Of a stretch of 64,000 bases of DNA, positions 3,438-7,349 are shown one piece after another. The notes below the pieces were generated by a model that saw nothing but the letters and a program-made list of their open reading frames with translations, searched no databases and was not told where the DNA came from. The translations under genes were made by a program, and so were the position numbers. Every line of letters starts with the position of its first letter. The stretch's first letter is position 1. This DNA is from Verrucomicrobiota bacterium (lineage in GTDB: Bacteria; Verrucomicrobiota; Verrucomicrobiia; Opitutales; Seribacteraceae), in contig JAQBYT010000001.1 of assembly GCA_027622665.1 (NCBI GenBank), forward strand, positions 320,001 through 384,000. The letters run 5' to 3'.

Positions 3438-4502
3438 ATGAGTCTTTTCTACGAAAAAATCTTTAGGCCGTTATTATTTAAGCTAGAAGCTGAACGGGCA
3501 CACCGAATCGCCGCTTTTTCTATGCGAGTTCTTGGCAAGACCACTCTATTGAGGGGACTCGCATCCCTTTATTGTCGCACCGAATCTTCCCCCGTTCGTC
3601 TTTTCGGCTTGGATTTCCCCAATCCCGTTGGATTGGCCGCAGGCATGGACAAAAACGGTGAATTTATTCGGTCTTCACTTGCCCTTGGTTTCGGGCACGT
3701 CGAAATTGGGACGATAACTCCACAGCGCCAACTAGGCAATCCCCGGCCCAGGCTTTTTCGCTACCCCCCAGTGGGGGGAATTGTCAACCGAATGGGATTC
3801 AACAACGATGGAGCAGAAATCGTAGCTGACCGGATTAAAAGAAACTATCCGAGGGGAAAACGCAATATGCCACTAGGCATCAATATCGGAAAGGCAAAAA
3901 CAACTGACCTCGATCAGGCCGCAGAGGATTATATTAAATGCTTCAAAATTGCGGCAGACCAGGCGGATTACATTGCTATTAACATAAGTAGCCCCAATAC
4001 CAGAAGCCTTCGAACACTCCAAGAACCTGATCGGCTCGAACCACTGCTCGCCTCCATTAATCAGGAGAGGAAGGATTATTCGGCGAAAATGGGGCGGAAA
4101 CACGTTCCGGTATTGTTAAAGATTTCTCCGGATGAATCATTTCGAGCCCTAGACATTGTCCTCGAACTTGCTTTTCTTCATGAAATTGATGGAATTATTG
4201 CTACGAACTCAACTGTTAGCCGAGCCGAGCCGAATTCCGCATGCTGTACAGAGCCTGGCGGTCTCAGCGGTTTGCCTCTAAGAAAACGCTCCACCGAGGT
4301 CGTGCGCTACCTCGCCAAGGCTTCAGGTGGTCGCATTCCAATAATTGGAGTCGGTGGAATCTGCGACGCTATGACAGCAGGAGAAAAACTGGACGCCGGG
4401 GCATCCCTCATTCAACTCTATTCGGGATTCGTCTACAAGGGGCCCTTACTTGTTAAAAGCCTTGCTCGATCGATGGTCCACAGGTGCTCAAATCCGATTT
4501 AA
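3438..4502 (+). CDS. pyrD: quinone-dependent dihydroorotate dehydrogenase (class 2)
   Basis: NPVGLAAGMDKNG, GNPRPRLFR, NRMGFNN, NISSPNT, LLKISPD, GGLSG, IIGVGGI. Confidence 0.97.
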   Translation: MSLFYEKIFRPLLFKLEAERAHRIAAFSMRVLGKTTLLRGLASLYCRTESSPVRLFGLDFPNPVGLAAGMDKNGEFIRSSLALGFGHVEIGTITPQRQLGNPRPRLFRYPPVGGIVNRMGFNNDGAEIVADRIKRNYPRGKRNMPLGINIGKAKTTDLDQAAEDYIKCFKIAADQADYIAINISSPNTRSLRTLQEPDRLEPLLASINQERKDYSAKMGRKHVPVLLKISPDESFRALDIVLELAFLHEIDGIIATNSTVSRAEPNSACCTEPGGLSGLPLRKRSTEVVRYLAKASGGRIPIIGVGGICDAMTAGEKLDAGASLIQLYSGFVYKGPLLVKSLARSMVHRCSNPI

Positions 4503-4585: not shown

Positions 4586-5578
4586 ATGAAAAAAGGGCTT
4601 TTATTTGGAATTTTGCTGCTGATCGGTGGAGGTGGACTTGCCGTATTGGTTAAATTTGGGGGGAAACCGGAGAATTTAAAGTCATGGTGGCATAAATTCT
4701 CGCACAATAGCGATTCACTGCCTTGGTGCCCTTACCAAGTGCGCGAGGTCGATGCATCAAAAATGTACATCAAGAAGGCCACCCAAGTACTTTTTCTTGA
4801 CCAGAACCTCTTCTGGAAGGGGCAGGGCGCAACAGTTGGACCAGAATTAGATAAAAAAGGTAGAGTGGTTCGTTTGATCGTTACTGCAGGCGGATCGGGT
4901 TATTCGCCTACGACCACGGCGGAAGTAGTTGGTGCCGGATCGGAGACCTTTAAATTGGGGAACGTGACAGTCAAAAATGGTAAAGTTGCAGGCGTAGAAT
5001 TTATAAGTGGAGGAGAGTGGTACCGTACCTCGAGGGTACATGCATACAGTACAGACGGTCGAGTCGAAGTGTTGCCTTACAGCGGAACCACCAAGCTAAA
5101 ATTCGACAATGGCCAAGTTCACGATGCTAAACATTTCCTTTCGGGTGAACTCCACGGAAAATGGAAACGATTTAGGCAAGATGGGATACAAATTTTTGAT
5201 AAAGAATTTACGCGGGGAAAGAAACACGGGGCACATCTTTATTATTTCCATGACCCGATTGATCCCGAAGACTATAAAACCCAAAGTGATGCACACCTAA
5301 AGAGAAAGATATACGCCTCGCTCTGGCTTGAAGTTCACGAAGATGCCAGACGGAAATTCCTCAAATACCCATCACCGGAAGCAAACGAATGGGCCATAAA
5401 AAAGTACAAGGAACGGGGAGGCGAGTTTCAAGTACATCTTCTCGAACATTACGAGAATAACAGGCGCCATGGCAGTTTCGAAGGGTATGACTACCTTGGA
5501 AATCCTACTTTTAAGGATGATTACAAGGAGGGTCTTCGCATAAGCCATAAAACTTTTGACAAAACCAAAAAAGGTTAG
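4586..5578 (+). CDS. membrane-anchored hypothetical protein with MORN-variant/YwqK-like repeats
   Basis: N-terminal hydrophobic segment; repeats such as FLSGELHGKWKRF, FTRGKKHGAHLYY, YENNRRHGSFEGY. Confidence 0.7.
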   Translation: MKKGLLFGILLLIGGGGLAVLVKFGGKPENLKSWWHKFSHNSDSLPWCPYQVREVDASKMYIKKATQVLFLDQNLFWKGQGATVGPELDKKGRVVRLIVTAGGSGYSPTTTAEVVGAGSETFKLGNVTVKNGKVAGVEFISGGEWYRTSRVHAYSTDGRVEVLPYSGTTKLKFDNGQVHDAKHFLSGELHGKWKRFRQDGIQIFDKEFTRGKKHGAHLYYFHDPIDPEDYKTQSDAHLKRKIYASLWLEVHEDARRKFLKYPSPEANEWAIKKYKERGGEFQVHLLEHYENNRRHGSFEGYDYLGNPTFKDDYKEGLRISHKTFDKTKKG

Positions 5579-5598
5579 CGAATAGAAGTTTCTGAAGA

Positions 5599-5683
5599 TG
5601 GTGCTCAGGGGGGGACTCGAACCCCCACGGGTTACCCCACCAGGTCCTTAACCTGGCGCGTCTACCAATTCCGCCACCTGAGC
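5599..5683 (-). tRNA. tRNA-Leu, anticodon AAG, CCA encoded
   Basis: Reverse complement GCTCAGGTGGCGGAATTGGTAGACGCGCCAGG-TTAAGGA-CCTGGTGGGGTAACCCGTGGGGGTTCGAGTCCCCCCCTGAGCACCA: 7-bp acceptor stem, long variable arm, TTCGA T-loop, anticodon loop T-T-AAG-G-A. Confidence 0.95.
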
Positions 5684-5864
5684 TGAGTTGACTAACACTT
5701 TCATCATCATCCCGTGAATGAAAGAAGTCATAGCATGGCACATTGTTGTCGTTAATCCAAGAAAAAATCTTCGGGTTGCATTAGTTTAAGCATAACTCTT
5801 GTCAAAGGGGAAGAGGTTTGCCATCATGTATAACCAAAGAATGGTACTACACTCCGAAGATTCA

Positions 5865-7349
5865 ATGTCCGACAAGGCGCAACCCGATCTAGCGTCATTG
5901 CTAAATGCGAACCTTGGTCCTACATGGAGCGGCGACAACTTATCTTCGTCTCGCACTATCGAAAAAAGGTCACCAGAACAAACCGCTCACCGTGAACGGA
6001 AAAGTGGGTGGTCGACAAGCGACGGCCGCTCGCGAGAACACTCCAAAAGTGAACGCGGAAAGAGACAACAATCTCGAAAAGACAACTCAGCCAGGACAGA
6101 CTACCCTAGAGTAGCTAGGGCCGAGAAGCCTTTCTGCAAAATAAGCTTTTTTCCCTCGCCGGAAACCTTCAATGCAATTGCCGCAAATCTTCGAGAAACA
6201 GGACGCACTTTCGAGCTGTTTGATCTCACATCTACGATTCTGGCAAAGCCAGAACGGTTTGTCGTCCGAGTGTCCATGCCCAAGGAAGCAATCGATCAAG
6301 AAAAAACATTGTGCGTATCTAAGCTAGACGGGTTAGTTTTTGACTCCCCCGAGGCAGTAATTGATCATCTCATCGCCAAGGGACTGGGAAATATATACGA
6401 TGTCGAAGAGATCGAAACAGAACCTCCGTCAGGTAATTTCCCTGCCATCAATAGATGTGGGATTACTGGAGATTGGCTTGCGCCTCCGAATTATCATCGC
6501 TATGCGGAAATGATTCGCGAGCACCACGCCACTAAGCTCGCTAATATCACCTTTGATAAATTCGAGAAGAAAATCGAAACTGTCCGCGAACCCGAGGCTG
6601 CGACCGCTTGGATTGAAGAAATGAGAAAGGTTCGAAAATATAAGCTTACAAAGCCCAAGGCTGACGATCCTGAAAGCTTTGACAGCCTTGTAGCACTCCG
6701 CAAACACCTCGCATTCCATAAATCTTCTGCATTCGTCCAGACCTGTACAAATACCGAGTTTCACGGAAGGTTGCTGGAGAATCTTTCCGGAGGTATCCTG
6801 AAAGACGATATTGAGATCACTCTTGAACAGCAGCGTCGCTTTCCACTAGATACGGCCTTGGCTCTTTTGGGTCGGTTTCGCGCCGCCAAGTTTCACCACT
6901 TCAAGCGTGGGAAAAAGGGCATCTCCTATCTCTCGCCCATTAAACGCCGTCGCCGTGTCGCTGGCGAACGTTTCTCTCCCTCGATTGAGGGACTCATTTC
7001 CTTTGTCGAAAAACACCCGCTTACCGAAAAAGGCTCACTGGCTGAAAAGCATCTTGGGATTTCCGCCGACAAGAAAGATGACCCAAAGAATTCAGATGCC
7101 ATCCGAACTCTTGCCCGAGACCTGCATTGGCTAATTGCGGAAGGCTACGCAACTGAGTATTCAGATGGTCGTCTCGAAATCCGTTCGCTGATAGCCAGCA
7201 ACGAAGGGAAGAGCAAAGAGAATAAGATCAAAATTGAAGTTGACCAAGAGGCAGAGAACGAATCCATAAATTCTAAAGTCGATAAAAAACCTGAAGATCT
7301 GGGAGATGCCCCAACAGGCTCAGACTCCGAGGGGCTTCGCCAATCGTAA
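5865..7349 (+). CDS. hypothetical protein (basic disordered N-terminus, possible winged-helix-like C-terminal region)
   Basis: ~495 aa ORF; start uncertain (5799-5865); no family recognised. Confidence 0.8.
   Translation: MSDKAQPDLASLLNANLGPTWSGDNLSSSRTIEKRSPEQTAHRERKSGWSTSDGRSREHSKSERGKRQQSRKDNSARTDYPRVARAEKPFCKISFFPSPETFNAIAANLRETGRTFELFDLTSTILAKPERFVVRVSMPKEAIDQEKTLCVSKLDGLVFDSPEAVIDHLIAKGLGNIYDVEEIETEPPSGNFPAINRCGITGDWLAPPNYHRYAEMIREHHATKLANITFDKFEKKIETVREPEAATAWIEEMRKVRKYKLTKPKADDPESFDSLVALRKHLAFHKSSAFVQTCTNTEFHGRLLENLSGGILKDDIEITLEQQRRFPLDTALALLGRFRAAKFHHFKRGKKGISYLSPIKRRRRVAGERFSPSIEGLISFVEKHPLTEKGSLAEKHLGISADKKDDPKNSDAIRTLARDLHWLIAEGYATEYSDGRLEIRSLIASNEGKSKENKIKIEVDQEAENESINSKVDKKPEDLGDAPTGSDSEGLRQS

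Follow-up and report, generated by a model that had tools for sequence, protein, structure and literature searches.

Background

How a bacterium reads the leucine codons CUU and CUC with a tRNA whose anticodon begins with A, and how it came by such a tRNA, are the questions raised by a single gene in the DNA analyzed here, a stretch of 64,000 nucleotides (the window) from the genome of a marine bacterium of the order Opitutales, Verrucomicrobiota (assembly G000). At positions 5599-5683 on the reverse strand, ARAGORN predicts a tRNA-Leu(AAG), the sole tRNA gene within the window. Published work names Bacilli, Mycoplasma and Prochlorococcus as carriers of tRNA-Leu(AAG). We propose that the gene encodes a housekeeping CUU/CUC leucine tRNA whose anticodon would have switched from GAG to AAG in place in the ancestor of the host family, that the genome's only TadA would convert A34 to inosine, and that I34 would let the tRNA read CUC besides CUU. 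The ancestral date of the change and the editing by one TadA, taken jointly, are a reading in which we place considerable confidence.

The tRNA gene

The gene is 85 nt long and of class II, with an encoded CCA, discriminator A73, an acceptor stem of 7 bp in which all positions are paired, and a long variable arm. It matches Rfam RF00005 at 57.7 bits (gathering score 29), and the two programs together bear out a sequence-only reading of the window that had described an intact leucine tRNA with an AAG anticodon. The anticodon arm (CCAGG/CCUGG; 5640-5656, reverse strand) has the sequence which that reading gave, CCAGG-UU AAG GA-CCUGG. The loop U32-U33-A34-A35-G36-G37-A38 (UUAAGGA) occupies 5645-5651 and the anticodon A34-A35-G36 occupies 5647-5649, both on the reverse strand; A34, the predicted site of I34 editing, had been placed at 5651, which is U32, and lies instead at 5649. 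The secondary structure was taken from the Rfam alignment, and minimum free energy folding of the tRNA did not recover the cloverleaf. A promoter-like site and a terminator were sought on the tRNA strand and not found. The tRNA is presumably expressed in mature form and charged with leucine; bacterial LeuRS ignores the anticodon.

The identity of position 34 was checked against independent assemblies. DNA contigs of runs X1 and X13, both possible sources of this DNA, show 0 differences over 5300-6000, and there are likewise 0 differences in DNA contigs of runs X12 (5300-5683) and X14 (5483-5659), both of which cover the anticodon. Contigs from RNA libraries span the gene in 4/4 runs (4 studies), with 0 differences inside it and 6-17 in the flanks; these are assembled contigs that include flanks, not mature tRNA, and position 34 reads A in them. 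Among the differences in the RNA contigs, nine of the A>G or T>C type were considered as possible editing and rejected: none (0/9) is in a UAMG context, and they are therefore taken as strain differences. The same base in contigs from other studies and strains disposes of the base-call error that had been raised as a possibility. Relatives agree, in that all of the best 30 orthologous loci of the family are Leu(AAG) and none is GAG; across these loci the tRNA stems vary with pairing kept.

Leucine tRNAs and codon usage

In the G000 assembly, which is 93.5% complete, ARAGORN made 38 tRNA calls, including the leucine tRNAs CAG, CAA, TAG, TAA and AAG as well as Arg(ACG). The genome-wide absence of Leu(GAG), which the sequence-only reading had suggested checking, was recovered by both methods applied: ARAGORN found no Leu(GAG) in G000, and a pattern search for a paired arm with either GAG or AAG had the tRNA-Leu(AAG) gene as its sole match. 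This absence alone proves little, because the assembly also lacks further tRNAs that should be there, among them Ile(GAT), Asp(GTC) and Ala(TGC). Relaxed ARAGORN settings with introns gave 1,624 calls, which are noise. A second tRNA-His call (G000:C55:149858-149931), without CCA or a normal T arm, is probably spurious. Within the assembly, no tRNA other than tRNA-Leu(AAG) is predicted to read CUU and CUC.

Codons were counted in 2,185 long ORFs of G000 (1,149,864 codons, of which 28,051 are CUC). The leucine codons divide into CUC 25.0%, UUG 21.7%, CUU 21.2%, CUG 17.8%, CUA 8.3% and UUA 6.1%, with CUU and CUC together making up 46%. The earlier impression that CTT is common was sound, but it is not the top codon, CTC being higher. 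Given no GAG tRNA, CUC is therefore read by tRNA-Leu(AAG) or by stretched wobble of Leu(UAG). A search with one protein family found no CmoB above the cut-off in G000. In another AAG genome, G501, CUC accounts for 71% of the leucine codons in sampled genes.

A codon shift was looked for in 74 genomes, with as many as 16 orthologous genes from the vicinity of rpoB. In 12/12 genomes of the host family, the leucine U/C log-ratio exceeded the fit to other codon boxes; the mean excess was +0.47 (~1.2 SD; SD of others 0.38), compared with +0.42 in family f27, +0.89 in f41 and +0.09 in f33. The CUU share lay above the GC3 fit in 24/28 AAG genomes versus 23/46 others, counts that represent five origins only. 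Within G000, CUU/(CUU+CUC) is 0.458, the highest among the eight four-fold boxes. Equalized CUU/CUC speed has been reported for IAG, and the direction of the CUU shift agrees with it. The shift is modest, and it would fit an unedited A34 also.

Distribution

The switch, which had been described as one in this lineage, proved to be family-wide and repeated, not a quirk of the genome. A pattern that accepts either anticodon matched in 58/76 genomes of the host family, from 5/5 genera, with 60 AAG matches and two GAG-like matches (G023, G029) that were rejected as not being tRNAs. The family thus has AAG in 58/76 genomes and a Leu(GAG) tRNA in none, with 18/76 matching neither anticodon. Across the order (401 genomes), the either-anticodon pattern had matches in 375 and the AAG pattern in 73, with AAG found in 31/39 genomes of f1, 37/38 of f33, 3/4 of f27 and 1/11 of f20; an AAG match in G208 (f32) is not a tRNA, and that genome has GAG. 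In f27, the sister family, genomes differ from one another (3 AAG, 1 GAG). A scan of 351 genomes of the phylum gave 53 AAG matches, in f33 (22/23), f41 (25/27), f48 (1/1), f52 (4/9) and G000. Many of the GAG labels used here denote genomes that matched either anticodon but not AAG, only part of which were checked, either with ARAGORN or from the sequence that matched. In G232 and G246 (f12), a second, divergent tRNA-Leu(GAG) sits beside tRNA-Leu(CAG) in addition to the usual GAG gene (L071, L072), and may lie on an acquired tRNA cluster.

Leu(AAG) is spread far wider than the scattered lineages to which the sequence-only reading had confined it. A scan of a species-level genome collection with an AAG pattern gave at least 119 loci, and all 119 listed are tRNA-Leu(AAG); because the present tRNA served as template for the pattern, the locus counts are not frequencies. 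Assigned by record title, the matches listed include Verrucomicrobiota (43), Planctomycetota (12), Synergistota (9), Myxococcota (9), Bacillota (8), Fermentibacterota (6) and Caldisericota (4), with 1-3 each in ten more phyla. AAG genes are thus present in at least 17 named phyla, a count in which single matches from metagenome-assembled genomes may be misbinned or mislabelled. Ten of these genomes were checked for both anticodons, and 10/10 had AAG; two also had GAG-like matches that lacked a paired stem, and the one looked at further proved not to be a tRNA. A literature search on AAG in Verrucomicrobia or Akkermansia found nothing relevant, and earlier surveys may list Verrucomicrobiota.

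The gene was also seen on contigs of a viral collection. Two of these (L635:95-140 and L632:100-140) hold a family-type tRNA-Leu(AAG) cut down to its 5' half, which stops just beyond the anticodon loop; this may represent an attachment site through which a phage integrates into the tRNA-Leu(AAG) gene. Three large contigs from the collection (L630, L631 and L634; 395, 149 and 123 kb) carry full tRNA-Leu(AAG) genes. Reviews describe phages as being without tRNA-Leu(AAG) genes; these contigs may be host DNA or non-phage viruses.

Origins and orthology

The locus indicates that the anticodon changed in place. A divergent 516-aa ORF without a family match above the cut-off (5799-7349, forward strand) has homologues that flank AAG and GAG genes alike across the order, down to 0.9-Mb genomes, and pyrD, for quinone-dependent dihydroorotate dehydrogenase (3438-4502, forward strand), adjoins GAG loci too (L078, L082, L166). 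Because homologues of both markers adjoin AAG and GAG genes, the gene occupies the Leu(GAG) locus of relatives. With no GAG tRNA in the genome or the family, this upholds the G34-to-A switch proposed from the sequence. An origin from a Leu(CAG) or Leu(TAG) paralogue, or by transfer, is not needed, since the acceptor stem and locus match those of GAG orthologues; local gene conversion of the anticodon arm may have occurred. Between pyrD and the tRNA lies a 330-aa ORF without a Pfam or NCBIfam match (4586-5578, forward strand), whose end is 20 bases away from the 3' end of the tRNA. This ORF was present in 30/30 family loci and in 0 other tRNA loci searched, and therefore looks like a family-specific insertion.

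On a tree of 74 genomes built from 7 concatenated proteins, f1 and f27 were joined with support of 1.0, f33 and G263 stood apart, and the AAG/GAG trait needed 5 changes. A single origin for f1, f27 and f33 was rejected at the borderline by an AU test of one clade (p = 0.028; 20-genome subset, LG+G4) that was run after the first tree had been viewed. At least three separate switches occurred within the order, along with one probable reversal. The latter concerns genus g57, in which the loop is UUAAGGA in G129 (L167, G129:C179) and UUGAGGG in G151 (L166, G151:C78), with stem and locus shared, so that positions 34 and 38 changed together. We regard G151 as a probable AAG-to-GAG reversal within one genus, in which A38 became G38 and TadA has Asp66 versus the Asn66 of G129. 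The reading as a reversal rests on taxonomy, because G151 gave no rpoB match and is off the tree.

Anticodon loop and TadA

The TadA of Streptococcus pyogenes recognizes the widened motif YUAMGRA (bioRxiv 2023.09.19.555891), and the loop UUAAGGA fits it. In G000, tRNA-Leu(AAG) is identical to tRNA-Arg(ACG) in the pairs G30-C40 and G31-C39 and in G37-A38, and their loops (UUAAGGA and CUACGGA) differ at 32 and 35 only. A38 was found in 107/120 AAG tRNAs versus 0/118 GAG tRNAs, a comparison between different collections in which the GAG set came from a metagenome scan, kin are not independent and 2 stemless GAG loci were dropped. In the best 30 orthologous loci of the family, A38 is present in 30/30 and replaces the G or U38 of Leu(GAG) tRNAs. 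G38 is kept in 20/37 AAG loci of f33, in the f48 AAG locus, and in the isolated switches of G263, G613 and four f52 genomes, in which the GAG-type loop and stem are unchanged. A38 is present in Leu(TAG) and Leu(CAG) of G000 as well. We infer that A38 was selected for recognition by TadA. It could instead reflect ribosomal 32-38 tuning.

Work with the Escherichia coli enzyme indicates that ordinary recognition would not suffice. When an AAG tRNA was given an Arg-like loop, E. coli TadA edited ~15% of it; the enzyme was blocked on AAG tRNA by changes at positions 32, 37 or 38, and its editing of an AAG tRNA with G37 was undetectable (PMC11066159). Nor did it modify S. pyogenes tRNA-Leu(AAG) (bioRxiv 2023.09.19.555891). 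Because E. coli TadA fails on both G37 AAG tRNA and the streptococcal tRNA, a changed TadA would be needed.

G000 carries a single intact tadA (G000:C47:192729-193292) with HAE and PCxxC motifs, whose product has S. aureus TadA as its best PDB match (E 9.9e-37) and scores 146.2 bits, just under the NCBIfam cut-off of 150. Two other deaminase-fold genes of G000 are presumably RibD and cytidine deaminase, judging from Pfam matches. TadA matches were found in 193/201 genomes of the order. In a first set of 64 TadAs from the order, position 66 was Arg or Asn in 21/21 AAG genomes and in 0/43 others. This signature failed at 104 sequences (a set that left out the G148 sequence and three unlabelled ones), in which AAG genomes had 24 Arg, 17 Glu, 3 Asn and 1 Leu and the others had Arg in 3/59. 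Glu66 occurs in the basal genus of the host family (G074, G075), Arg66 in GAG members of f20, and Arg66 in 1/9 outside AAG genomes. Thr/Ser65, aligned to the S. aureus Arg44 that makes a phosphate contact (PMC10586758), marks f1 and f33; it was rejected as a signature, being absent from f27 and most outside lineages. Inspection of tadA, which the sequence-only reading had advised, gave one intact copy, and no residue diagnostic of broadened specificity held among the 104 labelled sequences. Arg66 and Thr/Ser65 are weak candidate leads.

Alternative explanations

Judged from the genes, A34 of tRNA-Leu(AAG) is likely edited to inosine, since CUC is the top leucine codon and unedited A34 reads C poorly, the loop fits the TadA motif, A38 separates AAG from GAG tRNAs, and tadA is intact. 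In streptococci, editing of Leu(AAG) by TadA has been shown both in vivo and in vitro (bioRxiv 2023.09.19.555891; PMC13249217). It is nevertheless conceivable, if unlikely, that A34 stays unmodified and reads CUU well and CUC adequately by superwobble, perhaps with help from Leu(UAG). E. coli tolerated four ANN tRNAs of four-fold boxes, which matured without being edited and replaced the native ones without severe cost (bioRxiv 2026.05.15.725136), and unedited Pro(AGG) read CCU:CCC at 56:44 (PMC11066159). The unchanged GAG-type loops and stems of the isolated switches and the high CUU share of G000 point the same way. For leucine, however, the unedited AAG tRNA in E. coli favored U over C by 87:13 (PMC11066159), yet CUC is the leading leucine codon of G000 and dominates in G501. 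The loop of the host family has moved toward the TadA motif, and the CmoB that would widen UAG reading gave no hit above the cut-off in the one family searched. Of the two mechanisms, TadA editing therefore appears better supported than wobble by unmodified A.

Editing might also be partial or conditional, leaving a mixed A34/I34 pool with an incompletely adapted TadA, which we consider more doubtful still. The limited activity of E. coli TadA on the Arg-like loop and the occurrence of AAG without a universal TadA change would suit it; on the other hand, both A34 tRNAs of S. pyogenes are fully edited in all growth phases (bioRxiv 2023.09.19.555891), and the switch is old and fixed across 5/5 family genera. 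That the gene is a pseudogene or an assembly error, or that it merely supplements a Leu(GAG) missing from the assembly, is very improbable indeed. The incompleteness of the assembly, with its other missing tRNAs, and the 18/76 family genomes without either anticodon would leave room for it, but the same base recurs in other studies and strains, AAG was found in 58/76 family genomes and a GAG tRNA in none, the gene occupies the GAG locus, and stem pairing is kept across the family.

Comparison with known systems

Likely I34 editing here, set beside the wide spread of AAG genes, raises a broader and more tentative possibility, which we put at somewhat short of even: I34 leucine decoding, instead of being peculiar to lactic acid bacteria, may be a second inosine system in wide bacterial use that has evolved repeatedly, GC-rich genomes included, via a two-step path. 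In the initial step, G34 would change to A on an unchanged loop; the arm would then converge on the TadA motif (R31-Y39, Y32, A38), and TadA would adapt by lineage-specific routes. Because the Opitutales would hold every stage, including reversal, the path would be directly testable. Close AAG/GAG pairs (G129/G151, G263/G236 and the f52 genomes) offer matched sets of tRNA and TadA that bear on how TadA widened its substrate range, and thereby on TadA-derived editors and on how the eukaryotic multi-substrate enzyme arose. If TadA has widened its range, editing of mRNA at UAAG sites would also be predicted.

Three known systems resemble the one described here. Bacterial tRNA-Arg(ACG/ICG) with TadA shares an A34 gene in a four-fold box and presumably the same enzyme, but it serves another amino acid and has C35 instead of A35. 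The engineered ANN tRNAs with unmodified A34 in E. coli likewise have an A34 gene supplanting a G34 gene in a four-fold box (PMC11066159; bioRxiv 10.64898/2026.05.15.725136); those are unedited, whereas the present gene has a loop that moved closer to the TadA motif, in a genome with an intact tadA. Closest is the tRNA-Leu(IAG)/TadA system of the Lactobacillales, carried by S. pyogenes (bioRxiv 10.1101/2023.09.19.555891), S. mutans, S. pneumoniae and Oenococcus oeni (PMC13249217). In both, AAG takes the place of GAG throughout the family, Leu(UAG) is retained, there is one tadA and the loop fits YUAMGRA; a modest rise in CUU may be common to the two as well. In the present system the editing is predicted. 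It differs in belonging to another phylum and being of independent origin, in a GC content of ~52% versus the 60-70% AT of the genera described for the Lactobacillales, in having CUC as the top codon, in the several switches and probable reversal within the order, and in a TadA with Arg66 where that of Lactococcus has Glu. The Verrucomicrobiota gene is thus a new lineage for the known tRNA-Leu(IAG) system of the Lactobacillales, of which the mechanism has already been described, and the advance is in its range and evolutionary path.
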